Assembly (NCBI GenBank): GCA_964348665.1
Contig: CAYGDP010000023.1
Coordinates: forward strand, 1,309 to 65,308
From: an uncultured Verrucomicrobiota bacterium
GTDB taxonomy: Bacteria > Verrucomicrobiota > Verrucomicrobiia > Palsa-1439 > CAYGDP01
DNA: 64,000 bases
Direction: 5' to 3'
Shown here in pieces: positions 1,648 through 62,827 of this stretch (positions are counted from its first letter, which is position 1; every line of letters begins with the position of its first letter). The position numbers and the translations under genes were made by a program. The notes below the pieces were generated by a model. It was given only the letters and a program-made list of their open reading frames with translations. It was not told the DNA's origin and did no database searches.

Positions 1648-4600
1648 GATCCGACTTGCGGCATTTGTGGTTGGTATGGCGTTCGCGGCTGGGGTAGTAC
1701 TTGCCCAAGCGCCCAATCCGGTTGCGGAAGCGTTGCGCAAGGAAGCGGAAAGCGCATTTCAAGCCGAGGATTACAAGACGGCGAGCGAGAAGTTCGGTGA
1801 GTTCAAGAAAAAGTTTCCTGCCGATGGCAACCTTTGGGTCGTTGTTTTCCAACTTGGCCAGGCGTACTCGCTCGACGGTCAGCACGATAAGGCGCAAAAG
1901 GAATTTGAGGACTTGCGGAAATTGCCCATTACGCGCAGCGACGAGCAAAAAGAGCTGATTGCATTCTGGCTCTTCCGGGTCGCGGGAGGCCGGGTCGAAA
2001 AAGCGGCAGCGTCAGGCGACACGAAGAAGCGGGATGCGGCCTATGCCACGGCGGAAAAGGCGTACGAAGATTTTATCAAGGGGTTTTCCAAGACAAAACT
2101 TCGCACCGAATCCTTGTTTTACATTGCGATGGCGCGCGAGCAGGCGGAGAAATTCACCGAGGCGAAGAAGGCGTATAAAGACGTGATTGCGGTTACCGCG
2201 CAGTCAGCGCTGGCTGCCGATCGACAGCTGGCGCAAAGCGCAACGTACAAAATTGCGAGTGTTCTCCTGAAAGAATCCAAAGCGGCCAAGCGCGCGAATA
2301 AGACGGCCGAAGCCGAGAAATTCCGCGATGAAGCGCGGAAACAGTTCGATGAAGTATTGGTCAAAGCCAAACAAGTGCAGAATTATCTTCTGATCAACGA
2401 AATGAATTTTCGGGTCGGGATGATTTGGTTTGAAGACGAGGAGTTCAACGAGGCAATTGTCATGCTGCGCTTGGTGCGTCCTAAGTCCGAACTTCTCGCC
2501 TACCAGACGGCGGTCGTGCAGTCACTCGAAAGCAATCCTCTCACGCGGACGAATGCCGACCTGAAGGCTCGTCTCGATACGGCCAAACAGATGAAGGAAA
2601 ACATCGCCGCCGCTCCAGATCCGTTTATTATTGCGTACGACACGATCGCCCGCGCGTATATCCGGCAGCAACTTTCCCACGAGGCCTATACGATCACCCG
2701 GCATTTGCTACCACATGCCACAGATAAGATGCAGCGTAAACAGGTGCAATTGGATTTGATAAGTTCTTTACTGGGATTAAGTATGGCTGACGCGGCGCGC
2801 GATGAATTTGCAAAATGGCAGGAAGATTTCAAAAACGACGAGGGCGGCGACCACGTCAGTTATTTGATCGCACAATTGTATATTCAACAGCGGCCTTCTC
2901 GCTATGACGAAGCTCGCGCACAATACAAAAAGAGCCAGGTGGATTATCCGACTGGCCGGTTTTTTGCCGGCGCGTTGCTTGGTGAGGCGATGGCGTATCC
3001 TCCGTCGCAAGCGCCTCAAATGCTGGAGGCGCTCAAGAAGATCGAAAAACGCATCGAAAACGAAAAGGAATTGGCGGCGGAATTTGCCTTTCAACTGGCC
3101 CAGGCGTATTACGGTCTTGGCAAATATGCCGAAGCGGCAGCTCAATACAGGGTTGTCAAAGAGAAACATTCCGGATACCCCAATCGCCCCGTCGCTGCGC
3201 TCCAAATCGGCATTTCCACGCTCAAAGCAGGCAAACCCAACGAAGCCATCGTCGAGTTGCAAAAGTTCATCACGGATTTTCCGGAGAACAAGGATTTGAC
3301 CACCGACGCGTATTTTCAGATTGCCAACGCGACGGAGATGAAAGCCTCCAGCACCATGGATCTCAAACTCAAGAATGAGACGCTCGATGACGCCGTCAAG
3401 CAATACCGCGCCATTATTGGCCGCGATCCGAAGGGTCCGCGCGCCCCCGACGCGCAAATCAAGGTCGCCGCCGTTTATAGCGCCAAGCAGGACTGGATAG
3501 CGATGTCCAACGCGTTGACGGCTTTAACCAAGGAGTATCCCGAGAGTCCTCTCGTGCCGACTGCGTATTTCTATCTCGGCCAAGACCTCGTTCGCCAGAA
3601 ACTTTATGACAAAGCCGTCGAACAATTCGAGATGATCACCAAAAAGTTTCCCGACAGCCCGAATGCTCCGGATGCCCATCTCGAGATCGGGAATGCGTGG
3701 AAAAAATCCGCTACCGACATGGGCTTGCCGCAAGGATTGCTTCCTGAAAAACTCGCCATTTGGCAGGAACGCGTTGCCAAGGCAATCGCCGCATACGAGA
3801 CTACGCTGCAAAAATTTCCCGACCGACCGCAGGCCGATGTCGCCTTGAGCTCCATTCTAAGCCTTCAAAGTCTCCGCTTGGCTGCCAAACTTATTGCCGA
3901 GAAGGATGTCAGCAAATATTTCGATGATCTCGCCAAAAAATTCTCCGGCAACCGCATCCTTCGCATCAAGATCGCCTTTGCCGGAGGCAAGCTCATTCGT
4001 GATCCTGCCGAATCGCTGAAGATATTTGACCGACTTTGGACCGAAAGCGATAAGGAGAATCTGCCACTTGGAATAGGCTTTTACGAGGAATATGCCAAGC
4101 GACTTGCCGTCGCCACGCCGCCGCAGTTCGATAAAGCCGTCGCCGCTTGGGCGAAGATGTTCGAGGTTGCCGCCGATAATGAGACTCGCGCCCGCGCCCT
4201 GATCGGTCGCGCGGAACCCCTCACGTTGCAGAAAAAATATGGCGATGCCGAGAAACTTCTGGACCGCGTGATCAAGGAGTTTGACAAGACAAAAGCCGTG
4301 CCCAGCGCGCACCTGGGAAAGGCCTACATTCTTGACGAGCAAAACAAGCCGGAAGCGATTGATGCTTATAAAAAGGTGCTGGAAACGGCAAAGGGCGAGT
4401 TGCTTGCCAAAGGGACTTTCCGCATCGCCAACGCGTATTTGAAGAAAAAGGACGATGCCAGCGCGTTCGTTCATTTTCGCACGATGGTCGAGATGTTTTC
4501 CACCTTTGCTGAGTCCGCCGAGTCTGCCTACCGTTGCGGCGAGATTCTGGAGCGAACCCCGGCCATCGCCACAGCGCAAAAAACAACCGCGCTCAACTTC

Positions 4601-4684
4601 TATAACATCGCAATCCGATACAAAAATTCTCCGATGGCCGAGAAAGCCGCCGAACGTATCAAGGCTCTCTCTGCAAAGAAGTAG
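1634..4684 (+). CDS. Large tetratricopeptide-repeat (TPR) protein with an N-terminal signal/TM segment. The likely start is GTG 1634, overlapping the pnp stop, rather than the upstream track start at 1310.
   Basis: Long ORF. GGAGGA lies 4 nt upstream of GTG 1634. A hydrophobic N-terminus 'LAAFVVGMAFAAGVVLAQA' is followed by many TPR-like helical repeats ('AYYGLGKYAEAAAQY', 'YFYLGQDLVRQKLYDKAVEQF'). Confidence 0.6.
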   Translation: MSLNKIRLAAFVVGMAFAAGVVLAQAPNPVAEALRKEAESAFQAEDYKTASEKFGEFKKKFPADGNLWVVVFQLGQAYSLDGQHDKAQKEFEDLRKLPITRSDEQKELIAFWLFRVAGGRVEKAAASGDTKKRDAAYATAEKAYEDFIKGFSKTKLRTESLFYIAMAREQAEKFTEAKKAYKDVIAVTAQSALAADRQLAQSATYKIASVLLKESKAAKRANKTAEAEKFRDEARKQFDEVLVKAKQVQNYLLINEMNFRVGMIWFEDEEFNEAIVMLRLVRPKSELLAYQTAVVQSLESNPLTRTNADLKARLDTAKQMKENIAAAPDPFIIAYDTIARAYIRQQLSHEAYTITRHLLPHATDKMQRKQVQLDLISSLLGLSMADAARDEFAKWQEDFKNDEGGDHVSYLIAQLYIQQRPSRYDEARAQYKKSQVDYPTGRFFAGALLGEAMAYPPSQAPQMLEALKKIEKRIENEKELAAEFAFQLAQAYYGLGKYAEAAAQYRVVKEKHSGYPNRPVAALQIGISTLKAGKPNEAIVELQKFITDFPENKDLTTDAYFQIANATEMKASSTMDLKLKNETLDDAVKQYRAIIGRDPKGPRAPDAQIKVAAVYSAKQDWIAMSNALTALTKEYPESPLVPTAYFYLGQDLVRQKLYDKAVEQFEMITKKFPDSPNAPDAHLEIGNAWKKSATDMGLPQGLLPEKLAIWQERVAKAIAAYETTLQKFPDRPQADVALSSILSLQSLRLAAKLIAEKDVSKYFDDLAKKFSGNRILRIKIAFAGGKLIRDPAESLKIFDRLWTESDKENLPLGIGFYEEYAKRLAVATPPQFDKAVAAWAKMFEVAADNETRARALIGRAEPLTLQKKYGDAEKLLDRVIKEFDKTKAVPSAHLGKAYILDEQNKPEAIDAYKKVLETAKGELLAKGTFRIANAYLKKKDDASAFVHFRTMVEMFSTFAESAESAYRCGEILERTPAIATAQKTTALNFYNIAIRYKNSPMAEKAAERIKALSAKK

Positions 4685-4748
4685 CGCAGACATTTTGCCT
4701 GCAAAATTCTTCTGGCCGCGTTCGTGACGCAACGATATCCTCTCCACG

Positions 4749-5405
4749 ATGCCAAAAGAACCTCGTATTGCACGCCGTTCCCGCGCTGCCAAGCTCCTCG
4801 CTCGTCTTCGCCGCGCCTATCCCGACGCGAAATGCTCTCTCGATCATTCCAACCCTCTCCAGCTCCTCGTGGCCACCATCCTCTCTGCGCAATGCACCGA
4901 TGATCGGGTCAATATCGTCACCAAGGATTTGTTCCGGAAATATCGCAGCGCCGATGACTTTGCCAAAGCTCCACCCGGCGTTTTGGAACAGGACATTCGT
5001 TCCACCGGTTTCTACAAAAACAAAGCCCGCTCCCTCCGTGCTTGCTGCGCCGATATCGTTGCCATACACGGTGGGCGCGTTCCCGACACGATGGACGCGC
5101 TCACCGCTCTCGCTGGGGTCGGCCGCAAAACCGCCAATGTCATTCTCGCCACCGCTTTTGGCAAAGCCGAGGGGATCGCCGTGGACACGCACGTCACGCG
5201 ATTGTCGCAACGATTGGGACTGACGCGCCACACCGAGCCGGAAAAGATCGAGCGCGACTTGATGGCGCTCGTTCCCCCGCGTAATTGGGATTCACTTTCG
5301 TTGCTCCTGATCTTTCACGGCCGCCGCCGCTGCATGGCGCGCAACCCCGATTGCGAGCATTGCGAAGTGGCCGCCCTTTGCCCTAAGATTGGGGTGAAAG
5401 GATAA
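4749..5405 (+). CDS. nth: Endonuclease III (DNA glycosylase/AP lyase) with a 4Fe-4S cluster
   Basis: HhH-GPD motif 'LAGVGRKTANVIL' and a C-terminal Cys cluster 'CMARNPDCEHCEVAALCP'. Confidence 0.9.
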   Translation: MPKEPRIARRSRAAKLLARLRRAYPDAKCSLDHSNPLQLLVATILSAQCTDDRVNIVTKDLFRKYRSADDFAKAPPGVLEQDIRSTGFYKNKARSLRACCADIVAIHGGRVPDTMDALTALAGVGRKTANVILATAFGKAEGIAVDTHVTRLSQRLGLTRHTEPEKIERDLMALVPPRNWDSLSLLLIFHGRRRCMARNPDCEHCEVAALCPKIGVKG

Positions 5406-5410
5406 TAATC

Positions 5411-5881
5411 ATGCCTGACCTCCAAGAAGGCGATCTCGCCCCAGATTTTGACGCGCCTGCGACGACGGGTGGCTCTCTGAAACTTGCCGATCTGCGCGGA
5501 AAAACCGTTGTGGTTTTCTTTTTCCCGCGCGCGAACACGCCGGGTTGAACCATCGAATCGTGCGAGTTTCGCACCGCGCAGAAAAAATTTACCGACCGCT
5601 ACGCCGTCATCGTCGGCGTTAGCACCGACAAGCCCGAAGCGCAGCAGAAATTCGCGCGCCGATTCAAGCTGACGTACCCGATCGTTTCGGACGCTGAGAA
5701 GATCATCGTGAAGGCCTATGGTGTGTGGAAGCCGAAAAAATTCATGGGGCGCGAGTTCCTCGGCACACAGCGCGCCACGTTAATCATCGGACCCGACGGT
5801 CGGATCGCAAAAATCTTCCCCAAGGCAAAGGCTCTCGGCCACGCCGCCGAAGTGCTGGCGGCGCTCGATGAACTGCGCTAA
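5411..5881 (+). CDS. bcp: Bcp/PrxQ-type peroxiredoxin with an in-frame UGA (5546..5548) at the peroxidatic Cys position; predicted selenoprotein.
   Basis: ATG 5411 follows an AAGG-like spacing. The translation 'VVFFFPRANTPG-U-TIESCEF' matches the Prx T-x-x-C motif with TGA replacing Cys, and a resolving Cys lies 5 residues later. The frame stays open to TAA 5879..5881. A hairpin lies immediately downstream of the UGA. Confidence 0.75.
5549..5585 (+). promoter_or_regulatory. SECIS-like stem-loop (GTGCGA-GTT-TCGCAC at 5560..5574) beginning 11 nt after the in-frame UGA
   Basis: A perfect 6-bp inverted repeat read directly. Its nucleotide context is nearly identical to the second Sec-Prx gene (GGGTTGAAC..TCGAA.CGTGCG.GTT.CGC). 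Confidence 0.55.
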
Positions 5882-10212: not shown

Positions 10213-11433
10213 ATGGCAACTGCTTTCAAAAATCTTGGACTCTCCGACGAAGTCGCGCAAGGCGCGCAAGCCGCGGGCTACGTAGATCCCACCCCAATTC
10301 AATTGCGGGGGATTCCCGTTGTCCTTGCGGGACGCGACGTGATTGGCTCTGCCCAGACCGGCACCGGCAAGACTGCTGCGTTCGCCATGCCAATTCTCTC
10401 CTTGCTCAAGAATCACGGCAAATGCCGGTGCCTTGTGCTCGAACCAACGCGCGAGCTGGCGATGCAGGTGGAGACTGCGTTCCGGGACTACGCGCGGTTC
10501 ACTGACCTGCGCGCCGCGGTCATTTACGGCGGGGTCGGTTACGGCAAGCAACGCGACGACCTCAAGCGCGGCATGGATATCCTTGTGGCGACACCCGGTC
10601 GCCTTCTTGATCTGATGCAGCAAGGCGATGTGCAGCTGCGCGACATCAACATCCTCGTGCTCGACGAAGTGGATCGAATGCTCGACATGGGCTTCCTGCC
10701 AGACGTACGACGGATTGTAGAGCGTTGCCCAACGACGAGGCAGACGCTTCTCTTTTCCGCCACCATTCCCTCTGAAATCGAGCGATTGGCGGCGTGGGTA
10801 TTGCGCGAGCCGGAGAAAATCGAGATTGGCATCAGCCGGTCGGTCGCCGAGACGGTGACGCACGCGTTTTACCCGGTCGCCGAGAGCCAAAAAGCCGAAT
10901 TACTTCTCGCGCTGCTCGAACGCACGCACTACGACAGCGTACTCATCTTCACCCGCACTAAACATGAAGCCGACCGCATCTCGCATCGGCTTCGCGATGC
11001 CCGTCATGCGGTCGCCGTACTGCACTCCAATCGCACGCAGCGCGAGCGCGTGGAAGCGTTGGAAGGATTCAAGAGCGGCAAATACGAAGTCATGGTCGCC
11101 ACAGACATCGCCGCGCGTGGAATTGACATCGCTGGCATCAGCCATGTCATCAATTACGATGTGCCGCAGCATCCGGAAGATTACGTCCACCGCATTGGTC
11201 GCACTGGCCGGGCGCAGGCGGTTGGCGACGCTTTCACGCTCATTACCGCGGATGAAATCAACGAAGTGCGCGCCATCGAGCGGTTTATCGGGCAAAAAGT
11301 CTCGCGCTTGAAACTGGAAAATTTTCACTATGTCTTCTCGACCATCTTCAACGAAGACGCCATTGGGAGTGGCAGCCCAAGAGGCGGGCGCACTTCCAGC
11401 GGCTACTCGTTTTCCCCGCGCCGTCGGCGTTAA
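10213..11433 (+). CDS. DEAD-box ATP-dependent RNA helicase (RhlE-like)
   Basis: Q-motif, 'AQTGTGKT', 'DEVD' and 'HRIGRTGR' motifs. The C-terminal 'GGRTSSGYSFSPRRRR' basic tail is read directly. Confidence 0.85.
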   Translation: MATAFKNLGLSDEVAQGAQAAGYVDPTPIQLRGIPVVLAGRDVIGSAQTGTGKTAAFAMPILSLLKNHGKCRCLVLEPTRELAMQVETAFRDYARFTDLRAAVIYGGVGYGKQRDDLKRGMDILVATPGRLLDLMQQGDVQLRDINILVLDEVDRMLDMGFLPDVRRIVERCPTTRQTLLFSATIPSEIERLAAWVLREPEKIEIGISRSVAETVTHAFYPVAESQKAELLLALLERTHYDSVLIFTRTKHEADRISHRLRDARHAVAVLHSNRTQRERVEALEGFKSGKYEVMVATDIAARGIDIAGISHVINYDVPQHPEDYVHRIGRTGRAQAVGDAFTLITADEINEVRAIERFIGQKVSRLKLENFHYVFSTIFNEDAIGSGSPRGGRTSSGYSFSPRRRR

Positions 11434-13731: not shown

Positions 13732-13967
13732 ACCACAATCGCGCGCGCTGTCGAGAAGTTTTTATTGGCCACGAAAAGATTTACCCGCCGTGAGGTTTGG
13801 CGGGCACAAAAAGCGAAAAACAGTTTTTTGTCTTTCACTGTTGAGCATGGCTATAATATCAGCGAGCAGCCGAGCGGTGGTCGCACGTCCAGCGGCTACT
13901 CGTTTTCCCGCACCGGCGGCGGTGATCCGATCCTGGATTTGAAATTTCAAATCTTAAATTTGAAATT

Positions 13968-14501
13968 TTAAGCTTCGCGATCTTCATCTTCAACTGGTAT
14001 CCCGCGTTTTGCCAGGCGCTTCCGCATCGTCTCTTCATTGATCGCCTTAAATTTTTGGGTGAATGCCGCCGCGCTTTTCATTTGCTCGTCCACGCGACGG
14101 GATTTTTCGTTGAGATACCGGTGGCCGGTGACCTCGGAATTTTGGAGGCTGTCCGCCCAAGCGTGAAGCTGGCGCGAGCAACTCTCGGCGATGGATTTCA
14201 AATTTGATATTTCAGATTTGAAATTCGCGAAGCGTCCGCGCCGCTCCAAAAAGCAGAGCATCGAACGCACTTCGCCTGCTGACCCGCGCGCGATGTAAAG
14301 GAACGTCAGCAGTTCTTGCGTTGTCCCCCGCTCAAATCCTTCGGCGATATTGTTGGAGACTGACAGGGATGCTCGTTCGATCTGGTCGCGCAGCGAGTAG
14401 CTGCTTTTCCAGCGCGAGTCCTCGGTCATGTCATACACATCCTCGGCAAGGCGGATCGCTTCTTTCCAGACGGGCAAATCTTCAAATCGTTCATAGGTCA
14501 T
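13968..14501 (-). CDS. Four-helix-bundle protein (23S rRNA intervening-sequence protein family, TIGR02436-like) with a ~60-aa C-terminal extension
   Basis: 'SLRDQIERASLSVSNNIAEGFERGTTQELLTFLYIARGSAGEV' is the hallmark core of this family. Confidence 0.7.
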   Translation of the reverse strand: MTYERFEDLPVWKEAIRLAEDVYDMTEDSRWKSSYSLRDQIERASLSVSNNIAEGFERGTTQELLTFLYIARGSAGEVRSMLCFLERRGRFANFKSEISNLKSIAESCSRQLHAWADSLQNSEVTGHRYLNEKSRRVDEQMKSAAAFTQKFKAINEETMRKRLAKRGIPVEDEDREA

Positions 14502-20908: not shown

Positions 20909-21328
20909 ATGAAGCTTGCTGTCAAATGTGATTATGCTTCTCGCGCGGTGGAGTGGCTTTCGATGAAATATCCAAGCGGGCAACCTGCGTCCATTGAGGA
21001 GATCGCTCGGAGTCAACGGATTCCTGCGAATTATCTGGTGCAGATTTTGCAGGAATTGAAGGCGAGCGGGTTGATTCGCAGCCTGCGTGGCCAAGCGGGA
21101 GGCTACATTTTGGCGCGTCCACCGGAGCAGATTAGCTTTGCCGATCTGCTCCGCGCAGTACACGGTGATGTGTTTGATATCACTTGCTCGCTGGATCGGG
21201 GATGTCCCGACGAGCTGCGGCAGGTTTGGCAGCGCCTCAAGGGCGTGTTTGAGCGCGAAGCGGAGTCGGTGAAGTTTGACCAGATCGTCACAGTCGCGAG
21301 CGGCCGCGCGCAAATGTTCGAGATTTAA
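20909..21328 (+). CDS. Rrf2-family transcriptional regulator (IscR/CymR-like)
   Basis: 'CDYASRAVEWLS...IEEIARSQRIPANYLVQILQELKASGLIRSLRGQAGGYILARP' is the canonical Rrf2 wHTH. Confidence 0.85.
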   Translation: MKLAVKCDYASRAVEWLSMKYPSGQPASIEEIARSQRIPANYLVQILQELKASGLIRSLRGQAGGYILARPPEQISFADLLRAVHGDVFDITCSLDRGCPDELRQVWQRLKGVFEREAESVKFDQIVTVASGRAQMFEI

Positions 21329-21335
21329 TTGGTGG

Positions 21336-21369
21336 CACAGGCGTCTCTGCCTGTGATTATTTGTTCTTT
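21336..21369 (+). terminator. Rho-independent terminator after the Rrf2 gene (CACAGGC-GTCTCT-GCCTGTG, then a T-rich tract)
   Basis: 7-bp perfect stem followed by 'ATTATTTGTTCTTT', read directly. Confidence 0.6.
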
Positions 21370-21435: not shown

Positions 21436-21568
21436 CTCTTATCGAGAGTGGCAGAGGGACTGGCCCGTTGAAGCCACAGCAACCGACCGCGCTAGCAACG
21501 TGGTGACAAGGTGCTAAATCCAGCTTGTTCGTTCCGCGATGGCGGGGCAGACAGGAAAAGATGAGAGG
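21436..21568 (+). ncRNA. SAM-I (S-box) riboswitch aptamer
   Basis: 'CTCTTATCGAGAGTGGCAGAGGGACTGGCCCGTTGAAGCCACAGCAACC...GGTGCTAAATCCAGC...AGATGAGAG' matches the S-box consensus. It has P1 (CUCUUAUC/GAUGAGAG), the kink-turn GA, P3 and the GGUGCUAAAUCC junction. Confidence 0.85.
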
Positions 21569-21624: not shown

Positions 21625-22881
21625 GTGCGCACCATGCACAAAAACTATATGCTGGGTCTCAAATGTCGGGAATGCGCGCGGCGCTATCCGAAGGAAGCGC
21701 TGCACGTGTGCGAGTTCTGTTTCGGGCCGCTCGAAGTCGAATACGATTACGAGGTCATCGGCAAGGCGCTGACACGTGAGAAAATCCTCGCGCGTCCGCC
21801 GACGATGTGGCGCTACCGCGAGTTGCTGCCGCTGGACGGCGAACCGACGGTGGGATTCCAAGTCGGTTTCACGCCCTTGGTGAAAGCCGATCGCCTAGCA
21901 AAACGCCTCGGTGTGCGCGAATGCTGGGTCAAAAACGACACGGTCAATTATCCGACCTTATCGTTCAAAGACCGCGTCGTTTCGGTGGCGCTCTCGCGCG
22001 CGAAGGAATTGGGCTTCAAGATTGTCGGCTGCGCTTCGACGGGGAATCTCGCCAATAGCGTTGCCGCCAACGCCGCCAGCGCGGGGTTGCCCGCGTACGT
22101 TCTGATCCCCGCCGACCTCGAGACGGGAAAAGTGCTCGGCTCAGCCATCTTCGGCGCAAAAGTCATCGGGATTCACGGCACGTACGACGAGGTGAATCGC
22201 CTATGCTCCGAAATCGCGGGTAATTATGGCTGGGGTATTGTGAATGTGAATCTTCGGCCGTATTACGCGGAAGGCAGCAAAGCGATGGGCTTCGAGATCG
22301 CCGAACAACTCGGCTGGCGATTGCCCGATAACGTGGTTGTCCCGATGGCGGGCGGCTCCCTGATCACGAAGATCCATAAGTCTTTCCGCGAATTCGTAAA
22401 GCTCGGCTTCGTGAAAGACCACGCAACGAAGATTTTCGGCGGACAAGCGGCAGGCTGCGCGCCCATCGTGAATGCGATCAAGGCGGGCACGGACATCATA
22501 GCTCCCGTCAAAAAGCCGAACACCATCGCCAAATCGCTTGCGATCGGGAATCCGGCGGACGGGTTTTATGCGATTCAAACGATGAAACAGACCGGCGGCG
22601 ACGGCGAAAATCCAACCGACGACGAGATCGTCGAAGGCATCAAGCTGCTGGCGGAGACCGAAGGCATTTTTGCCGAGACCGCAGGCGGCGTGACGGTCGG
22701 CGCGGCGAAACGTCTCGTGGAAAGCGGCGCGATCAAGCGCAACGAGAGTCTGGTGCTCTGCATTACGGGACATGGCTTGAAGACGCAGGAAGCGATCAAT
22801 GGAAAGTGCGCTACGCCGCGCCTGATCGGGCCGAGTTTGAGAGAGTTCGATGCAATCTATGAGAAGGATAAGATAAAGTAG
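21625..22881 (+). CDS. Threonine-synthase-like PLP enzyme with an N-terminal 4-Cys zinc ribbon. Candidate MetM-type homocysteine synthase that would use a sulfur-carrier thiocarboxylate.
   Basis: 'PTLSFKDRVV' PLP-lysine motif of the ThrC family and 'CRECARRYPKEALHVCEFC' N-terminal ribbon. Sits directly downstream of a SAM riboswitch and upstream of a MoaD-like gene. Start is GTG 21625 or ATG 21634. Confidence 0.8.
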   Translation: MRTMHKNYMLGLKCRECARRYPKEALHVCEFCFGPLEVEYDYEVIGKALTREKILARPPTMWRYRELLPLDGEPTVGFQVGFTPLVKADRLAKRLGVRECWVKNDTVNYPTLSFKDRVVSVALSRAKELGFKIVGCASTGNLANSVAANAASAGLPAYVLIPADLETGKVLGSAIFGAKVIGIHGTYDEVNRLCSEIAGNYGWGIVNVNLRPYYAEGSKAMGFEIAEQLGWRLPDNVVVPMAGGSLITKIHKSFREFVKLGFVKDHATKIFGGQAAGCAPIVNAIKAGTDIIAPVKKPNTIAKSLAIGNPADGFYAIQTMKQTGGDGENPTDDEIVEGIKLLAETEGIFAETAGGVTVGAAKRLVESGAIKRNESLVLCITGHGLKTQEAINGKCATPRLIGPSLREFDAIYEKDKIK

Positions 22882-22954
22882 CCCGCGAAACACACGAAAG
22901 AACGCAAAAGTTTTCGAGTGTTTCGCGTATTTCGCGGGTAATGAAAGGAATAAC

Positions 22955-26091: not shown

Positions 26092-26214
26092 TACCGGAGA
26101 AACCGAACTATGAATGAAACGGAAAGGATTTTGACCCGCGAAACACGCGGAAAGACACGAAAGGAAAGCGGAGATTTTTTCGCGTAATTTTGCGTTTTTC
26201 GTGGGTAACCTTTT

Positions 26215-29400: not shown

Positions 29401-29991
29401 TTGTATTGGGACGCTGCTTTGAAACCGCCGCGCAAAATAATTAAATCCTACAGGGCATCGCGCTCTCTCGTTCCGGTCGAGCGCATCCACAACGTCATCG
29501 TTCTCCTCCGCGGCCAGAAAGTCATTCTCGACGCTGATTTAGCGTTGCTGTACGGCGTGCCTACCAAGGTTCTTCTTCAAGCGGTGAAGCGAAATCGCGA
29601 CCGATTCCCGTTGGATTTTATGTTTCGATTGACTGCCACAGAGACGAAAAACTTGAGGTCACAATTTGTGACCTCAAGTTGGGGTGGTCGCCGCTACTCG
29701 CCATACGCATTTACCGAGCAGGGCGTTGCCATGCTCTCCAGCGTGCTGCGCAGTCCGCGCGCCGTGCAGGTCAACATTGAGATCATGCGCGCGTTCGTTC
29801 GGCTGCGGCAAGTGTTGGCGACGCACGCCGACCTCGCGCGAAAGCTCGATTCTCTTGAAGCGCGGCAGGACGCAGAGTTCGCTAAAGTTTGGCGCGTCAT
29901 CCGCGAACTGGTACAACCACTCGACCCGCCTCGCCGGAAAATCGGCTTCCTTCAAGAAGAGGGTGGGAAATATCGTATCAAGCCCCGCTAG
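29401..29991 (+). CDS. ORF6N-domain protein (KilA-N-like putative DNA-binding protein)
   Basis: '[25 protein letters not shown]...[23 protein letters not shown]...[24 protein letters not shown]' matches the ORF6N domain. Start choice is uncertain. Confidence 0.6.
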
Positions 29992-30001
29992 TGACGCGAA
30001 G

Positions 30002-32590
30002 ATGAAACACTCATGCCCCATTATTTTAGTGTTCTTAAGCCTCCTCGTGGCCAACGCTTTCGGACAATCATCATCCCTCGACCTGCGCGCGGGTTGGAAA
30101 TTCTCGACTGACCCGAAAAAAATCGGCGAGATCCAGAAATGGGCAACGCCAGACTTTGACGATGCTAATTGGGCAACGATAGATGCCGGCAAGCCGTGGG
30201 AGGATCAAGGTTTTCCCGATCACGACGGCGTCGCGTGGTATCGCAAACGGGTCGAGGTTCCCGCCGATTGGACTGAGTTTTGGTTTGGCCTTGGCGGCGT
30301 GGACGATGCCTACGACCTTTTCGTCAACGGCAAGAAAGTTGCCAGCTACGGTCACAAGCGCAACTCGACTGTTTGGCAGACACCGACCGTTACCGACATC
30401 ACGGCGTTCGTCGAGAAAGGTCAGCCGATTACCTTGGCAATCCGTGTGGTGGATGCAAGTGGCACGGGAGGGTTGACCCGTGTGCCCGTCGCCATCGCGA
30501 GCAGCAAAGAATTTTTCGACACTCCTGAAGAAAAAATCCGGGCCCTGGCGCGGGCGAATCCAGCGTGGATTTTTCCCGCGTGGGCGCGTGGATCGCAACC
30601 ATCATGGACGATGATCGGCATGGCGGGCGGTCATACCAAAGCGTTGGTCGCCAACGACGCCAGCTATTCGCCGCGTCCTGGCGGATTCTCGGTGCAACAT
30701 TGGCTTTGGATGGATCATCAGCTCCATTCTCCCCAACTGAAAAATATCACGTGGCAAATGAATGATGGTTTTCTTCCGATGCCAATTGCAATTTGGCAGG
30801 CGGGAGAGTCCAAGGACAATGCCGTGCGCGTCACCCAACAGTGGTTCGTCTGGGGCAAAGATGTGCGCGACGATCAAGCCATGACTTTTGCGGTGGTCTC
30901 GCTCGAAAATCTCTCCGATGCGCCCAAGACCATCTCGCTGCTTACCGCGATTCGGCCTTATGCGATTACGGAAGGCATATCGCCCATCAAACAAATCTTC
31001 CGCCAAGATCGCTGGACTCTCGTGAATGGCAAACTGGCGCTCTACAGCGAGCAACCGCCTGATTCGTTTGGCGCGGCAAGTGGCGACGTGGGCGATCTAT
31101 CGGCAATCGCGCTTAGCGGACAAATGCCGGGAGGGACGCGAGCCAGCGATGAGAAGGGGATGGCCAGCGCATTGCTCAAGCACGACCTAAAAATTGAACC
31201 TCACGCCACCGTTCAGCTCTGTTTTCGTCTCCCGTTGACCGAGACCGAACCAACTGCCCCTGCGCTCGCGCTCAACGATTCGCTCGACACCGCCAAGAGC
31301 TATCAGCATGCGCATGATTTTTGGTCAACGACTCTCGGTCGCGCGAAAATCTCCATCTCAGAAAAACAATGGGCAGACGCTTACCGCGCCTCGCTCGCGT
31401 ATCTCTTGCTCTCGCTCGATGGTCAAACTTTTCGCGCGGGGCCAACCAGCGGCGAAGTTAGCGCGGGCGATGTCGTCGTGATGCTCCACGCGCTTGAAGC
31501 CGCGGGTCTCACCGAAGCTGCTGACCAAGTCATCAAGTCGTTTGCGGAGAAGAAAGAACCGAGAGCGGAGGAAATCGTTGCACTGATGAATTACTTCAAC
31601 TTTCGGTCCAACAAGGATTGGCTGGAAAAACAATTTATGAATCTTGTTTCAAGCGAAGCAAAGCTTGTTACGACTGGCGAAAACTTTTTACTTGGTTACT
31701 GGAATGTCAGTGCACTTCGCGAACTTGTGATTGCCGCCACAGTTCTTTCGAAAGAGGAGGGGGTGAAAGCTCTTTCTCAACTTGCGAAAGCAGGTGCTCA
31801 CGAAACAAAAGATAAAATCGATTTGGCGATGGAAAGTAATAAGTCGGCGTTAATTCCAGCCAGGTTTGATGACCTGCCAAACTCTGAGGCAGCAGTGTTT
31901 ACGAGTGCGGGAGTTTGGCCATGCGAATTTCATATTCTCAATGGTTCTTTGAACGATGTGTGGCTCAATAGATCTTTTGAGGGCTACTGGCATCGCTTTG
32001 TCCGCCCCAACGATGGCGGTTTTATGCATCACGGTCGGATTTGGCCGGCGCACGGATTGAATTTTGCCAATGCGATGATGCGATTGGGCAAACGTCAGGA
32101 ATCGGTAAAGATCGCGCGCTGGCATTTGGCGCACGAGAGTTTTCCGAGTCTGCACGCATGGGCGGAACAGATTGGGCGCGGCGATAAATCGCGGTTTGTG
32201 GGCGGTGAACTGCCCAGCGCCGTCACGGCGGCGGCCTACTCGAATCTGTTTCGCGCAATGTTCGTTTATGAGCGTGGCGAGCAACTGGTGCTGGCGGCGG
32301 GAGTGCCACTGGATTGGTTCACGAAAGCGAATTACACGGTGGAAATTTCCGATTGGCCGACCCATTTCGGCAAGCTCGGGTATCGGATGAGCTACGATCC
32401 AGCGGCGAAAATTCTGCGTCTGACCTTGACGGGCGCGGCGAAACCACCAAACGGTTTCGAGTTACACCCGCCGATGGGCGCGTATGTGAAGGGCGCGGAA
32501 TTCGACGGCAAATCAGCGGACGAGAAATCCTATACCAAGGATTTCGTCACGATCCCCGCCGACGTGAGGGCGATTGCCGTAAAATTTTGA
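30002..32590 (+). CDS. Secreted putative glycoside hydrolase. It has an N-terminal GH2-type sugar-binding jelly-roll-like domain and a large helical catalytic-like region.
   Basis: Signal peptide 'MKHSCPIILVFLSLLVANAFG'. 'GWKFSTDP...WATIDAGKPWEDQGFPDHDGVAWYRKRVEVPADW...GGVDDAYDLFVNGKKV' matches the GH2 N-terminal beta-sandwich pattern. Family is not resolved. Confidence 0.55.
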   Translation: MKHSCPIILVFLSLLVANAFGQSSSLDLRAGWKFSTDPKKIGEIQKWATPDFDDANWATIDAGKPWEDQGFPDHDGVAWYRKRVEVPADWTEFWFGLGGVDDAYDLFVNGKKVASYGHKRNSTVWQTPTVTDITAFVEKGQPITLAIRVVDASGTGGLTRVPVAIASSKEFFDTPEEKIRALARANPAWIFPAWARGSQPSWTMIGMAGGHTKALVANDASYSPRPGGFSVQHWLWMDHQLHSPQLKNITWQMNDGFLPMPIAIWQAGESKDNAVRVTQQWFVWGKDVRDDQAMTFAVVSLENLSDAPKTISLLTAIRPYAITEGISPIKQIFRQDRWTLVNGKLALYSEQPPDSFGAASGDVGDLSAIALSGQMPGGTRASDEKGMASALLKHDLKIEPHATVQLCFRLPLTETEPTAPALALNDSLDTAKSYQHAHDFWSTTLGRAKISISEKQWADAYRASLAYLLLSLDGQTFRAGPTSGEVSAGDVVVMLHALEAAGLTEAADQVIKSFAEKKEPRAEEIVALMNYFNFRSNKDWLEKQFMNLVSSEAKLVTTGENFLLGYWNVSALRELVIAATVLSKEEGVKALSQLAKAGAHETKDKIDLAMESNKSALIPARFDDLPNSEAAVFTSAGVWPCEFHILNGSLNDVWLNRSFEGYWHRFVRPNDGGFMHHGRIWPAHGLNFANAMMRLGKRQESVKIARWHLAHESFPSLHAWAEQIGRGDKSRFVGGELPSAVTAAAYSNLFRAMFVYERGEQLVLAAGVPLDWFTKANYTVEISDWPTHFGKLGYRMSYDPAAKILRLTLTGAAKPPNGFELHPPMGAYVKGAEFDGKSADEKSYTKDFVTIPADVRAIAVKF

Positions 32591-32759
32591 ACCACGAAAG
32601 ATCGCGAATGGACGCGAAAGGATTATGGAGTGCGCCGATTCACCTGCCGCGACGTGCGCGAGCACGGCGGGTCGGCGCTTTGTCTTGGCGCGATTGATCG
32701 CGCCATTTCGTCGACAAGTCGGAAGATGGGAAAACGACAATGGACCGTCGCGCTGCAAA

Positions 32760-35312
32760 TCAGTAGTGCAAAGTAAACCCCGTCACGCAAACTGCATCCT
32801 TGTGCGCCTTGCGGCTGACGGAATCCACGAGGAAAAGCGTTTCGAACTTGATTGGGTAGTGGATGATGCCATCGTTCGCGCCGCCCCAATGTCCCATCGT
32901 GGCTGTGTCCGCGAGCGCCATGGTTACGTAGCGCCAACCAGCGAAATCTAGCTTTGTTTCTGCCGTTGGCTGAAAAGTTTGACCGGTTGTGTCCACAAAG
33001 CGGCATCGGATTACATCCCCCACAGGCAGGGACGCCTGTGCCACGGATAAACGATGGACCCAGACACCCAACGATTTTGGCTTGTCCGCAATGGCCACCG
33101 GCTCTTTTGGCGCGAGCAGTAAAAACCGCCATCCATCGCCGAATTCGTAATCAATGCGGGCGGCGCTCGGAAACGGCGGATTATCTCCCGCGGATTTTCC
33201 TCTGGTAAGTACTGCCTTGCCAGCCACCTTCGCGTCGCCGTCGACCTGTGCCCGATACTGGTGACTGCGATTGTCGTCGAACACCTCGACGAGGCGGATG
33301 ATTGTGTTATGCACCAAATCGGCCTCCATCAGTTTTTTTTCCTTTGGCGGCGATAGCCAGTAATCAAACCGCAATGATGTTTCTCGGGGGAGCAACAGTC
33401 CCGTCGAGATTGGCAAGGTCGTCTCTTGCTGTCCTGGTTTGAAGACAAGAGCTGCTGTTCGCGATACGGCGTGTCCCACTGTCCAATGAAGCTCTCCTTT
33501 CATTGGTTCTCCGCTGGGATTTGACGCGATGACTCGGACTTCCAGATTACCGTTTGCGTCGGCGGCGGGAGCGGCACGAAGGAGAACTGTGTTACCGACG
33601 GTGAACTCGACGGCGTTGGTAAGCAAAAACTTAGGCGAGTCGATTTGTAGTTCGACAGGCACGATTAACTGATCGCTGTCCCGTCGGGTCATCGCACCCC
33701 GCCATTCGTAAGAAGCGGTTTGCTTCGCTTTGATTTGATGTGAGGCAAACTTTTCCCAGCCATTTTCGCCTTTTGCGCGAAGCACGAATTGTAAAGTTCT
33801 TTCGAATGGATTGGATACAGTAACAGTGAATCGCGGCGCGTCCTTGTCCTTCGCTGGCACTCCAGCGCTGATGAGTGGATTATCGACGTTTACGCGCCAC
33901 GCGGCTTCGAGGGCGAGGCGGTCATTCTGCCCCGTCCATGATAAGAACTGCGGGTTTTGCGTGAGCGTTAGCTTGTATTGGTTTTCTTCTGCGGGTAGCG
34001 GTTTGGTTTCGCCCATGAGCGAGGCAACTGTGACTTCGGTTTTGGAGTGCGCGAGCTTGCTCGCGCTTTGCTGTATCTTTAATTCCGAGAAAAGCGGCAG
34101 CAAGCTCGCGCACTCCAAAACAATCTCGTGCTCTTTTCCCGTCGTCCAAGCGACGAGGCGTTGCTCTTTGCCGCGGGTGAAGAGCAGCACGTAGTCATCG
34201 GTCGATTTTTGTGGAATCCGTTTTGCGAATTCGTGTCTACGTAATTGTTCAATGAAAGTCTTTGCAGCGAGATAACTTGGTTTTGGCTGCCAATCTTTGT
34301 ATTGCACCGTGCCGAAGTTGTGCTCGTTTTCTTTGGGGTCAGGACCATCGTCATGCCAGTCGTACCAAATGGAGAGCGGGATGCCGTTGGCAAGGTTCGT
34401 CAGCCATTGGCGAGCCAGATATTGGGCTTGTTGTTCTCGCGATTTGCCGCTGGCGTGAGTCGAATATCCCCATTCCCCGCTAATGATCGGGATAGATTTC
34501 GCGCCTTTCGCGTTTTTCGTGGTTGAATACTTCGCAATCAACGCCCGCAGCTTGCTGTATTCGCGTTCGACAGTTTCAGGATTGCTTCCCCGGTAGGGAT
34601 GGACGCTGACGGCGTCCAGATGATCGAGCAGACCTTTCTCAAACACGCGCTCCAGAAATTTCAAATCAATTTCCGAAGTGGCCGGTCCGATGATGGTGCA
34701 TAGCGGGTCGGCCTCGCGCATGGCTTTGCACGCTTGAATGGCCATCGCGGCGTAGTCGTCGGCGTTGGGGTTGAGTTTCCAGAATTGCGAGATGTTCGGC
34801 TCGTTCCAGATTTCCCAAATGATGCTGCGACCATTCGGAAAATCTTTGTAGTGAGAGACGGCGGCGGCGCAAAACTTTGCGAAGGCTGTTCGCGCTTCCT
34901 CGGTCACGGGTGGATTCATTGGCGCGCCGGTGTAAATCGGATTGCCGTAATCGAGGATGAACAAGGCTCGGATCTTTCGTTCCGAGAGGCCATTTAACAG
35001 TTGGTCATAGGCTCTAAAATCGTATTCGCCCCGTTTGCGCTCGACGCCGCTCCACGTGAAGTCCATTCGCACAAAACCAAATCCAGCGGCGGCGATGAGG
35101 TCGAGGTCGCGTTTGGGTGCGCCGGTGAAGTGAATGTTGACGCCGACGGCATCGGGCACGCGAAGAGAGGGAATGCCAGTCGAGAGTGGATCTGCCGCGT
35201 GGAGAGGGAGGAGGGAGGAGAGAAGGGTGAGTACTGCAATAATATTTTTTAACCACGAAAGCACGCGAATGGACGCGAATACAGAGCAACCTTCGTGTGA
35301 ATTCGTGTTCAT
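32760..35312 (-). CDS. Secreted clan GH-A glycoside hydrolase (GH5/GH39-like) with a ~450-aa C-terminal extension. Alternative start is GTG 35264, giving a clean signal peptide.
   Basis: 'IIWEIWNEPN' catalytic acid block and the (beta/alpha)8-type N-terminal region. Signal 'LSWLKNIIAVLTLLSSLLPLHAADP'. Confidence 0.65.
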   Translation of the reverse strand: MNTNSHEGCSVFASIRVLSWLKNIIAVLTLLSSLLPLHAADPLSTGIPSLRVPDAVGVNIHFTGAPKRDLDLIAAAGFGFVRMDFTWSGVERKRGEYDFRAYDQLLNGLSERKIRALFILDYGNPIYTGAPMNPPVTEEARTAFAKFCAAAVSHYKDFPNGRSIIWEIWNEPNISQFWKLNPNADDYAAMAIQACKAMREADPLCTIIGPATSEIDLKFLERVFEKGLLDHLDAVSVHPYRGSNPETVEREYSKLRALIAKYSTTKNAKGAKSIPIISGEWGYSTHASGKSREQQAQYLARQWLTNLANGIPLSIWYDWHDDGPDPKENEHNFGTVQYKDWQPKPSYLAAKTFIEQLRRHEFAKRIPQKSTDDYVLLFTRGKEQRLVAWTTGKEHEIVLECASLLPLFSELKIQQSASKLAHSKTEVTVASLMGETKPLPAEENQYKLTLTQNPQFLSWTGQNDRLALEAAWRVNVDNPLISAGVPAKDKDAPRFTVTVSNPFERTLQFVLRAKGENGWEKFASHQIKAKQTASYEWRGAMTRRDSDQLIVPVELQIDSPKFLLTNAVEFTVGNTVLLRAAPAADANGNLEVRVIASNPSGEPMKGELHWTVGHAVSRTAALVFKPGQQETTLPISTGLLLPRETSLRFDYWLSPPKEKKLMEADLVHNTIIRLVEVFDDNRSHQYRAQVDGDAKVAGKAVLTRGKSAGDNPPFPSAARIDYEFGDGWRFLLLAPKEPVAIADKPKSLGVWVHRLSVAQASLPVGDVIRCRFVDTTGQTFQPTAETKLDFAGWRYVTMALADTATMGHWGGANDGIIHYPIKFETLFLVDSVSRKAHKDAVCVTGFTLHY

Positions 35313-35318
35313 TCGGGG

Positions 35319-36167
35319 TCAAACATAAACCCGCTTCATATACTCGATGGATTGCCGCGCGATGGTTTCGGGGTCTGGCGTGTAGTCGAAGACTTCCACA
35401 CTGACGTAGCCTTTGTATCCAATCTCGCGCAGCGCCGCAGCAATCGGCGCGTGGTCCACATCGCCTTGCCCAGGGCCGCGCAGGTTTGGATCGTTGGCGT
35501 GGAAGTGACGCAGCAGATTTCCATGTGAACGGATGATATCGGGAATGGGCGTGCCTTCGTCCGTCATGGCTTTCACATCGAGGTGCAGCGCGCAACGGGG
35601 ATGATTCACCGTGGCGGCCAGCCACGCGCCTTCCGCGGCGGTATTGATGAAGTTGGTTTCTTTGCGTCCGAGCGGTTCGATGCAGAGGGTTACGCCGCGG
35701 GCTTCGCAGCGGGGCATCACGCCGCGAAAAATTTCCGCCGCAAATTCCAATCCTTGCTGTTTGGTGATGCCGTCGGCAAGATTTCGTTGTTTGGGCGAAC
35801 CCCAAACGAGCAACGTGCCGCCGACATCGGCGCAGAAATCCACCAGCGCTTCGGTATACTCGCGAGTAGCTTTTCGGACAGCGGAATCGGGCGAGGTCAG
35901 ATGCAGGCCTTGTGTTTGCACCAATAGCCAGTGCAGCCCGACAATCTTGAGTCCAGCATCCTCGGCGGTTTTGCGGATGACATCGCGTTTTGCCGGTGTG
36001 ATGCTGCGGACGGCGACTTCCGGGTGCGAATAGAAGGTGAACGGGGCAAGTTCAACGGCTTGATAACCGAGGGTGGCGGCACAACGGCAGGTTTTGGAAA
36101 AGCTCCAATGCTGAAACGTCGTGCTCGAGAGCGGCGCGAACGTCTCATTGCAAATGGCGAAGTTCAT
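35319..36167 (-). CDS. Sugar phosphate isomerase/epimerase (xylose-isomerase-like TIM barrel). Start is ATG 36167; the track ORF is over-extended.
   Basis: 'MNFAICNETF...' and a TIM-barrel pattern with conserved acidic and His residues ('HLDVKAM', 'EVFDYTPD'). Confidence 0.7.
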   Translation of the reverse strand: MNFAICNETFAPLSSTTFQHWSFSKTCRCAATLGYQAVELAPFTFYSHPEVAVRSITPAKRDVIRKTAEDAGLKIVGLHWLLVQTQGLHLTSPDSAVRKATREYTEALVDFCADVGGTLLVWGSPKQRNLADGITKQQGLEFAAEIFRGVMPRCEARGVTLCIEPLGRKETNFINTAAEGAWLAATVNHPRCALHLDVKAMTDEGTPIPDIIRSHGNLLRHFHANDPNLRGPGQGDVDHAPIAAALREIGYKGYVSVEVFDYTPDPETIARQSIEYMKRVYV

Positions 36168-37710: not shown

Positions 37711-37794
37711 TGCCGGCGGAGGGAATCGAACCCACACGCCCTTTCGGGCACTGGATTTTGAGTCCAGCGCGTCTGCCAATTCCGCCACACCGGC
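37711..37794 (-). tRNA. tRNA-Leu (anticodon CAA), class II with a long variable arm. CCA is not encoded.
   Basis: The reverse complement reads GCCGGTG...CTGGA-CTCAAAA-TCCAG...TGCCCGAAAGGGCG...GGTTCGATTCC...CGCCGGCA. It has a 7-bp acceptor stem, anticodon loop CUCAAAA, T-loop TTCGATT. Confidence 0.8.
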
Positions 37795-62343: not shown

Positions 62344-62507
62344 GGAGAATTTAAGTTGCGGATGGCCGTCAAAGGGATATGCTACCGAAGCGAATCGAGA
62401 CCATGAGGAGGAACCGAATCAATTCGAGACGATGCGGCGATGCTGACTGTAGGCATTGCTTCGCAATAAGACTACTCGGCTGCGCCCTTTTCAGGTTCAA
62501 ATCAAAG

Positions 62508-62765
62508 TTATTTTGAGGAGCCGCGAAATTCGTTTCTAAAAATGTCGGAAAGGCGACAATGCAAACGCCGGATAATTTGCTGAAGGTTGCGCAGAGTAAT
62601 GCTTTGCGCTCCGCGTTCGAGCCGATGCAGGGTCGAAGGAGGAAGGCCAAGCTTTCGGGAAAATTCAGCATAAGTCTGCTTCCCTCGCTTCTGGCGCAAG
62701 AACAAACCGAGTTGTCTTTCAAGCGAATCTCGCACGGGCCGAGAATGCCGCAGCCTGTATTCCAT
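62508..62765 (-). CDS. XRE-family (Cro/CI-type HTH) transcriptional regulator of 85 aa
   Basis: 'YAEFSRKLGLPPSTLHRLERGAQSITLRNLQQIIRRL' is a canonical HTH_XRE. Confidence 0.7.
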   Translation of the reverse strand: MEYRLRHSRPVRDSLERQLGLFLRQKRGKQTYAEFSRKLGLPPSTLHRLERGAQSITLRNLQQIIRRLHCRLSDIFRNEFRGSSK

Positions 62766-62827
62766 TTGTGGAATATCTTCTTGTTGACCGCGCTACAGGT
62801 GTGTGCTAAGCGAGACTGACTCAAAAA

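Follow-up and report, generated by a model that had tools for sequence, protein, structure and literature searches.

Why should a gene for a carbohydrate-active enzyme lie between two near-identical copies of a short repeat? We addressed this question for a GH5 (cellulase family) gene in a 64,000-nucleotide stretch of contig CAYGDP010000023.1 from an uncultured Verrucomicrobiota bacterium (the whole stretch is called the window below). A first-pass annotation had proposed that the repeat, which stands in direct orientation on the two sides of the gene, links carbohydrate-active and sulfur genes or, alternatively, that it bounds a module of ~2.7 kb. Neither the regulon nor the module reading is supported, because the orthologous sites of relatives lack the elements, the GH5 sequence of the syntenic relative L240 is free of repeats, and the composition of the GH5 gene is native. 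The two copies as such are ordinary, i.e., two members of a dispersed repeat. We think it probable that they are independent members of a family resembling repetitive extragenic palindromes (REPs) and miniature inverted-repeat transposable elements (MITEs), gained in both of the spacers that bound GH5.

The 29-mer AACCACGAAAG[AT/CA]CGCGAATGGACGCGAA has exactly two occurrences in the window, both on the plus strand: AACCACGAAAGATCGCGAATGGACGCGAA at 32590-32618 (copy 1) and AACCACGAAAGCACGCGAATGGACGCGAA at 35251-35279 (copy 2). This two-copy pattern was absent from 100 of 100 dinucleotide-preserving shuffles, and the pattern match thus confirms the presence, places and direct orientation of the pair. 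The identity of 28/30 initially given for it was slightly too high: we count 27/30 over the same 30 bp, 27/29 over the core, and 31/34 when the T-rich left flank is included. Each copy does contain three C(A/G)CGAA units at an exact spacing of 10 bp, starting at 32593, 32603 and 32613 in copy 1 and at 35254, 35264 and 35274 in copy 2, and the phased two-unit pattern is found six times in the window against an expectation of 0.27.

These units belong to a family that extends far beyond this genome. In an arm, an AACC cap is followed by C(A/G)CGAA(A) units that are spaced 9-10 bp and number from two to four or more. Arms stand either solo or as inverted pairs, a pair making up an imperfect palindrome of 50-180 bp. 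The pattern CCACGAAA-N2-3-CRCGAA-N3-4-CRCGAA was found in 116 stretches of viral contigs, often several per contig and commonly in the form (T)TTAACCACGAAAnnCACGAAAnnCACGAAA, and the CGCGAA-type pattern gave at least 120 matches in species-representative genomes. Among the matches listed, these genomes are mainly from Verrucomicrobiota and Planctomycetota, with others from Kiritimatiellae, Lentisphaeria, Acidobacteriota (Pyrinomonadaceae), Moduliflexus, Hydrogenedentota, Chloroflexota and further groups; Geminisphaera colitermitum TAV2 and Rhodopirellula sp. SWK7 are cultured carriers among them. The CysD 90% cluster of the host has named members that point to a verrucomicrobium, probably of Limisphaerales. 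Units are 9 bp apart in 241 cases vs 10 bp in 42, and the window 16-mer CGCGAATGGACGCGAA was seen once elsewhere. Solo arms outnumber pairs both in viral contigs (112 vs 22) and in genomes (94 vs 65). The palindromes end in AACC...GGTT, or in CCC...GGG in two paired elements of the window (elements A and B), and a folding energy of -15 kcal/mol or better is reached by these two and by 55 more pairs.

Rfam scans, made over the whole window at gathering thresholds and over 32400-35500 at permissive ones, gave no family at gathering score at any element, and the only matches were chance miRNA-like hairpins with E 0.004 or weaker. Our literature search retrieved no paper quoting the 16-mers of the family, the terminal 10-mers matching unrelated primers only, and a search for heptamer or response-regulator binding sites produced an analogy only. 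The consensus arm had no blastn match in cultured phage genomes, which may be due in part to the low-complexity filter. The family, which crosses phyla, seems to be very common in the genomes of Verrucomicrobiota and Planctomycetota and is apparently undescribed. It inflates the calls of open reading frames (ORFs) with peptides such as MNTN... and TTKNAK..., and it marks gene ends.

A profile built from 296 arms of other genomes scores five loci in the window, namely copy 1, copy 2, an arm within the GH5 coding sequence, and elements A and B (Table 1). The earlier proposal that the copies correspond to an arm of elements A and B is therefore right as far as the family goes; the units of A and B have other sequences and a spacing of 9-10 bp. 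Four of the five loci are extragenic, and a stop codon stands at the beginning of copy 1, of element A and of the arm paired with copy 2. The GH2_N-like gene ends in a TGA stop (32588-32590) that overlaps copy 1, and the minus-strand GH5 gene stops 140 nt short of this copy. Elements A and B sit within apparent operons and fold into hairpins of -25.1 kcal/mol (z -3.79) and -37.7 kcal/mol (z -5.29), respectively. The hairpin of copy 2 with its partner is weak by the same measure (-22.6 kcal/mol, z -1.68), and the RNA structure of copy 1 does not rise above that of shuffles (z +0.18).

Table 1. Members of the repeat family in the window and the genes next to the two copies (positions of the window).
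Feature	Position	Strand	Description
Copy 1	32586..32620	+	Solo arm: AACC + CACGAAAG / CGCGAAT / CGCGAA, 10-bp spacing; pattern match and profile 23.3 bits, E 3e-6
Rest of the ~159 nt extra relative to L240	32621..32749	+	Between the GH2-like stop and the GH5 stop
Copy 2	35247..35281	+	Distal arm of a decayed inverted pair; antisense to both flanking genes; profile 24.9 bits
Decayed partner arm of copy 2	35290..35318	-	CCCCGAATGAACACGAATTCACACGAAGG on the minus strand; directly after the TIM-barrel TGA stop (35321-35319)
Arm inside the GH5 coding sequence	34495..34528	-	AACCACGAAAAACGCGAAAGGCGCGAAA, 9-bp spacing; best profile score of the window, 27.2 bits, E 2e-7
Element A	22882..22938	.	Inverted arm pair; directly after the PALP (cysteine-synthase-like) TAG stop (22879-22881), ends 16 nt before the thiS-like ATG
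Element B	26135..26205	.	Inverted arm pair; ends 9 nt before the cysD ATG (26215)
GH2_N-like gene	30002..32590	+	Stop codon overlapped by copy 1
GH5 (cellulase family) gene, signal peptide	32760..35264, counted from GTG 35264	-	Pfam PF00150 and homolog alignment
Xylose-isomerase-like TIM-barrel (AP_endonuc_2) gene	35319..36167	-	Stop abuts the copy 2 hairpin

The history of the GH5 locus can be read from its only syntenic relative, L240/L241, which was found through the GH2-like protein (one relative, 63% identity) and whose cysN gene is ~76% identical at the nucleotide level. The order there is cysN, GH2-like gene, decayed GH5, small ORFs, Mem_trans, TIM-barrel gene and GYF. The GH5 pseudogene (4633-5486) retains residues 672-850, in two tblastn pieces in different frames, and residues 43-68; the remnant ends in VTGFTLHY* as the window protein does and lies tail to tail with the GH2-like gene, in the identical place and orientation. 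No arm was found anywhere in the 14.6 kb of L240. Because a GH5 remnant stands at the same place without arms, the comparison indicates that GH5 came to this position earlier than the repeats or, at any rate, without their involvement. The spacer between the GH2-like and GH5 stop codons measures 11 nt in L240 vs 170 nt in the window. The extra ~159 nt begin directly after TTTTGAAC, at the copy 1 arm, and the junction has no target duplication when compared with L240. The remainder of this stretch, from 32621 to 32749, has no second copy in the DNA of the other loci compared, and inspection of the 129 nt after copy 1 revealed no remnant of a GxxExxY gene, a type of gene that accompanies other arms (see below). 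On the other side of GH5, the TIM-barrel gene stops at the same codon in L240 and in the window, where the hairpin follows directly.

These observations bear on the proposal that the direct repeats are the ends, att-like or left as recombination scars, of a 2.7-kb module that brought in GH5 or can loop it out. Such a module would fit the direct orientation and 27/29 identity of the copies, and the gene that follows the TIM-barrel gene does vary among relatives (GH5, Mem_trans, RND pump, PQQ protein or DUF6807). The best homolog of the GH5 protein is only 44% identical, and the closest ones are labelled Armatimonadota/Abditibacteriales. Yet, the L240 remnants match GH5 of the window in place and orientation and have no repeat, and the gene itself has no foreign signature: its GC content (0.543), GC content at third codon positions (GC3, 0.61) and relative synonymous codon usage (correlation of 0.80 with the neighbours) are similar to those of adjacent genes. 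We found no integrase, transposase or target-site duplication, and no recombinase among the neighbouring genes. Furthermore, copy 2 overlaps the coding start instead of lying outside GH5, and three contigs, each of another sample, have one and the same sequence, none of them in an excised form. We thus give the module hardly any credence. Relatives of the TIM-barrel gene at 64-65% identity (L322, L324) have no convincing arm (best profile E 0.037); they have other downstream genes and are hence uninformative on copy 2.

Other relatives argue against the proposed link between carbohydrate-active and sulfur genes. If the three phased units were the operator of a regulator shared by glycoside hydrolase and sulfur-assimilation genes, the exact 10-bp phasing would place three sites on one face of the helix, and the family does adjoin both cys/thiS and glycoside hydrolase genes in the window. 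However, element A is absent from the orthologous PALP-thiS junction of L244, and no element like B lies upstream of cysD in the ten relatives inspected. Across 80 loci with the same cysD gene (86-91% amino-acid identity, 733 kb) we found one arm in total vs five loci in the 64-kb window; the GH5 and GH2-like genes are in none of the cysD-anchored metagenome loci. Taken as a whole, the family has unrelated genes as neighbours, across many phyla as well as on viral contigs, it is dominated by a 9-bp spacing, and its arms stand at stop codons rather than in promoter regions. At GH5 itself, two genes converge on copy 1 with their 3' ends, which leaves no promoter there for a regulator to act on, and a sigma-70 scan returned no promoter-like site beside either copy. 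The sulfur island also has its own S-adenosylmethionine (SAM) riboswitch. The operator is in our view close to refuted. Readings of the repeats as sigma-70, extracytoplasmic function (ECF) or sigma-54 promoters, or as attC sites, were dropped separately upon inspection (and, for sigma-70, upon scanning), as spacing and core motifs misfit.

If the copies are neither an operator nor the ends of a module, how did they come to flank GH5? The family behaves in a way suggestive of non-autonomous mobile DNA. Loci L120, L141 and L235, from different species, have only an arm-loop-arm unit of 96-177 nt in common, 88-95% identical, in contexts of 8 kb that are otherwise unrelated, and 15 pairs of loci share nothing except the segment containing the arm. 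Insertion also seems to have a preferred place. With genes taken as open frames of 150 codons or more whose GC3 is coding-like, a same-strand stop codon lay within 40 nt of the AACC end of solo arms in 32 cases vs 6 in the mirror arrangement in viral contigs, and in 22 vs 6 in genomes. We propose that the family settles in short spacers at gene ends, with the AACC end typically just after a stop codon, and occasionally in frame within genes. GH5 would be flanked by two copies because both of its bounding spacers were colonised: on one side by a solo arm (copy 1) within the ~159 nt missing from L240, and on the side of the TIM-barrel gene by an inverted pair, now decayed, whose outer arm is copy 2. 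The two may be independent insertions of one genome-specific subtype with 10-bp spacing, or local copies of each other.

Insertions of this kind could also have consequences for the transcripts that contain them. Transcribed paired elements (A, B and, weakly, copy 2) would fold as intercistronic stem-loops and, if they act as REP and Correia elements do, might make mRNA more stable or lead to its processing. At copy 2, the GH5 start codon would be hidden in a weak stem that separates the TIM-barrel gene from GH5. Copy 1 might provide a weak terminator-like mini-hairpin on the minus strand and would offer nothing to the plus-strand transcript of the GH2-like gene; no structure is predicted for it, and it is probably inert.

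Several results weigh against our explanation. The GH5 region is covered by one relative only, L240, so that a gain in the window is not formally separable from a loss in L240, and the census of arms in this host is that of the 64-kb window, with its five loci. In 84 pairs we saw no target-site duplication: the palindrome runs 0-3 nt past CCACG...CGTGG, and the flanks are not direct repeats. In the window we saw no transposase, GxxExxY gene or gene for a REP-associated tyrosine transposase (RAYT), the last without a systematic search. Reading by eye the ORFs that lie between inverted arms 0.5-3.5 kb apart, we recognised no known transposase: four recognisable ORFs were ordinary genes (purE-like, panC-like) or, in one case, GxxExxY, and one more was not recognised. 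As for the effects on RNA, paired hairpins are not stabler on the sense strand (12 vs 15, p 0.53), which leaves such effects unsupported and gives no sign of strand-specific RNA selection. Finally, one solo arm is ~91% conserved over 66 nt between L147 (~4010-4075) and L197 (~3310-3375), which are from two species, in the divergent spacer of an ABC ATPase (ybbA-like) and a GDSL esterase (tesA-like), while the surrounding 4 kb are 67.6% identical, and the solo arms of viral contigs are co-oriented with genes in 40 cases vs 11. Because of this conservation and this co-orientation, some arms may have a function of their own.

These last points raise the alternative that arms are mainly RNA-level signals for mRNA processing, stability or translation, with mobility being secondary. 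Candidate mechanisms include RNase III-type cleavage of paired arms and a single-strand-binding factor acting on the A/C-rich solo arm. The sense-oriented proximity of solo arms to stop codons would suit such a role, as would the position of viral arms, often 3-20 nt before an ATG, the strong hairpins of A and B in apparent operons, and compensatory changes between arms ~400 nt apart, which we describe below. Arrays of the heptamer TAACTGA have also been proposed to act post-transcriptionally (PMC4679880). Against this stand the lack of a sense-strand bias in hairpin stability and the orientation of solo arms in the tandem spacers of bacterial genomes, 16 sense vs 15 antisense with approximate gene calls. 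Relatives that retain the genes have no element at the orthologous site, and arms occur within coding sequence too. At GH5 itself, copy 1 is unstructured and copy 2 is antisense to both neighbours. We regard a primary role in RNA as unlikely, and favour dispersal as the origin of the two copies.

A further alternative would make the copies intrinsic terminators, serving the converging GH2-like and GH5 genes and the TIM-barrel gene. On the minus strand of copy 1, two CGCG cores can form a 5-bp mini-hairpin followed by TCTTTCGTGG, and a consensus scan flags this terminator-like site (TCGCGTCCATTCGCGA + TCTTTCGTGG) 140 nt after the GH5 stop; paired elements, too, stand right after stop codons. 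Such sites are nevertheless no commoner in the window than in shuffles (5 vs 4.3), and the family consensus of a T-run, a hairpin and an A-run is the reverse of a terminator in either direction. The common CACGAAA units are unable to form the CGCG mini-hairpin, and elements A and B lie in apparent operons, where the next gene starts 9-16 nt further on. Termination as the purpose of the copies is thus very doubtful.

Whatever their origin, the repeats have changed the gene that they flank. Copy 2 spans the 5' end of GH5, as the first-pass annotation had noticed: it covers the probable GTG start (35264-35262) and codes for MLSWLK. Gene callers choose instead the ATG at 35312, supplied by the partner arm of copy 2, which yields a product of 850 residues. 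The 16 residues added in this way, MNTNSHEGCSVFASIR, are translated hairpin and repeat (MNTN... from ATGAACACGAAT). All nine aligned GH5 homologs start at the column of the window 'LK', and none reaches the added residues. Because the homologs begin there and the extra residues are translated repeat, GTG 35264 is, on this alignment, the better start, in agreement with the earlier suggestion that it gives a clean signal peptide. The resulting protein has a normal signal peptide, MLSWLKNIIAVLTLLSSLLPLHA, followed by ADP, and its first residues come from copy 2 and the A/T-rich flank. At this locus we have thus removed a wrong regulatory or mobile-module reading and set the GH5 start at GTG 35264.

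The rest of the GH5 coding sequence contains three in-frame insertions relative to homologs, each from a different repeat family. The arm inside the gene encodes STTKNAKGAKS just before the GEWGY nucleophile motif, in a loop that is 5 residues longer than in homologs. At 34039-34121 (minus strand) lies an 83-bp near-perfect palindrome with 34-nt arms that are 91% complementary (-55.8 kcal/mol, z -8.8); it encodes ECASLLPLFSELKIQQSASKLAHS, which adds 21 residues and is absent from all aligned homologs. The arms of this palindrome match L301, L182, L308 and L234, which makes it a second dispersed repeat family. The third insertion, at 33021-33044, is the 24-bp palindrome GTGGCACAGGCGTCCCTGCCTGTG, read in frame as VAQASLPV and adding 6 residues. 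As a separate observation, GTGGCACAGGCGTCCCTGCCTGTG represents a third repeat family, with a second copy at 21325-21355, in the spacer upstream of the SAM riboswitch. The catalytic motifs NEP and GEWGY are intact. Repeats have thus remodelled a working gene, whose first residues and three internal loops are derived from them.

How might such elements spread? A lead is provided by genes of the GxxExxY family (TIGR04256 / PF13366), a PD-(D/E)XK nuclease family of ~120 residues with no known function. Of eight GxxExxY genes in the genome loci selected by their arms, seven lie within 150 nt of an arm. L197, L123 and L153 have a forward arm before the GxxExxY gene and an inverted one after it, at a distance of 9 nt on each side in L197 and at wider distances in L123 and L153, up to ~220 nt in the latter. 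The orthologous cassettes of L197 (2140-2630) and L147 (2830-3330) differ in both arms, and in each of the three units the change in one arm has its counterpart in the other (CACGAAA/TTTCGTG vs CACGGAA/TTCCGTG); the tips differ in the same paired manner (AACC/GGTT vs GCCC/GGGC). GxxExxY genes found independently of the motif, in L300 and L325, are also bracketed by inverted arrays of short units. In L300, the gene lies between cysD and cysN, with CGCAAAG/CGCAGAG units and arms identical at 26/27 positions; in L325, a viral contig of low GC, it is surrounded by CAAATGA/CGAATGA units.

These arrangements suggest that gene-carrying GxxExxY cassettes exist, of which hairpins and solo arms would be gene-less derivatives, whose spread may be driven in trans by a protein, for example the GxxExxY nuclease. 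A bolder and tentative extension, which we consider possible rather than probable, is that the arrays are the recognition ends of undescribed miniature cassettes encoding GxxExxY, with units that differ by lineage (CACGAAA, CACGGAA, CGCAAAG/CGCAGAG, CGAATGA). Both ends would be kept matched by the protein or by an RNA duplex of the arms, as the compensatory changes between L197 and L147 suggest. If this were true, solo arms and hairpins like those around GH5 would be derivatives scattered in bacteria of the Planctomycetes-Verrucomicrobia-Chlamydiae (PVC) group, Acidobacteriota, other phyla and viral contigs. Through its link with the arms, GxxExxY, a large protein family of unknown function, also becomes open to testing.

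In 65 relatives (L242-L321), between 7 and 1640 nt separate cysD from cysN, and this spacer is a hot spot for small inserted genes, including cysH, MazF/PemK-like, nucleotidyltransferase-like, restriction-like and GxxExxY genes. In the window, an ORF6N-domain gene (KilA-N-like, phage-type DNA-binding) lies at 29401-29991 (+) between cysN and the GH2-like gene. These two genes are 66 nt apart in L240, so ~1 kb is lineage-specific in the window. The SAM riboswitch is located at 21436-21567 (+; 77.6 bits), ahead of the PALP/thiS/cys cluster. A different palindromic repeat, GGTGGATCGCGACCTCCGGGCGCGAT, occurs at gene junctions of the same kind in other verrucomicrobial relatives (L322 5918-6090, L122), and in L322 it stands right after the stop of the TIM-barrel gene. 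Other features of the window are a tRNA gene at 37711-37794 (-), AT-rich TTTGAAATTTCAAAT copies 258 bp apart at 13934-14225, a 40-nt direct repeat with 88% identity and copies 2.5 kb apart (11377-11416 and 13870-13909), and GAACCGAATCAATTCGAGAC-like repeat copies at 62374-62862.

Among known systems, the REPs of Proteobacteria, with their bacterial interspersed mosaic elements (BIMEs), their hairpin-forming doublets (REPINs) and their RAYT transposases, have much in common with the family. Both are short extragenic repeats at gene ends and between cistrons, and both occur as singlets, as hairpin-forming inverted doublets and as back-to-back mosaics (for the family, e.g., in L138 and L164). Neither duplicates its target, and both are absent from orthologous sites of relatives and often lie a few nucleotides from a stop codon. 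The REPs of E. coli that lie within ~15 nt of a stop codon reportedly affect translation of the upstream gene (Liang, Rudd and Deutscher 2015). A GTAG or CGTC tag defines the two REP superfamilies (PMC3733652), whereas the ends of our family have neither. A REP unit is an imperfect palindrome of 20-40 bp, while the arm of the family is a phased array of direct repeats without self-structure, and only inverted pairs of arms make a palindrome. REPs are usually species-specific, in contrast to a family that is near-identical across phyla and viral contigs, and no RAYT gene was seen here, although no systematic search for one was made. Assignment to REPs fails because the tag is missing and the arms are not palindromes.

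The comparison with MITEs, and in particular with the Correia elements of Neisseria (Correia repeat enclosed elements, CREE), leads to a similar outcome. Like them, the family has elements of 50-180 bp with terminal inverted repeats and a short non-coding core, which are dispersed at gene boundaries, and the same element occurs in unrelated contexts of different species. There may also be larger relatives, in which the same ends enclose a gene. Transcribed Correia hairpins are substrates of RNase III and alter mRNA stability. Unlike MITEs, the family has no target-site duplication, and no known transposase was recognised by eye among the ORFs between inverted arms. GxxExxY genes lie between family-type arms in L197, L123, L153, L147, L300 and L325. 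Moreover, solo arms are at least as common as pairs, and arms are internally repetitive. Assignment to MITEs fails on the absence of target duplication, and no known transposase was recognised to support it.

The gene-carrying forms also recall the intervening sequences (IVS) of 23S rRNA, in which a small ORF encoding a four-helix bundle is enclosed by a long stem. In both cases, a small selfish-looking gene, here GxxExxY, lies within co-varying inverted repeats, and the GxxExxY cassettes do so in short spacers such as that between cysD and cysN. The cassettes are not in rRNA and encode another protein family, and the elements of the window carry no gene. The remaining classes are more distant: no U-tract follows the hairpin of the family as in intrinsic terminators; there is no coherent gene set or conserved promoter position as for the operators of transcription factors; and GH5 shows none of the foreign DNA, recombinase or presence and absence as a unit of an islet bounded by att sites.

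In the form of its arrays, the family comes closest to the TAACTGA heptamers, direct repeats found in intergenic regions of Beggiatoaceae, Cyanobacteria and Bacteroidetes (MacGregor 2015, PMC4679880). These, too, come in sets of 2-6 heptamers in intergenic positions near the boundaries of coding sequences, with a patchy spread across phyla, no evident transfer mechanism and no pattern in the functions of neighbouring genes (PMC4679880). TAACTGA units follow one another without gaps in front of start codons, whereas those of our family are separated by 2-4 variable bases and capped by AACC, and its arrays are frequently inverted pairs with the AACC end after stop codons. Overall, the family resembles REP/BIME or MITE elements in its working yet departs from the defining features of each, and the TAACTGA repeats are the closest published analogy for its array form, a resemblance in kind only.

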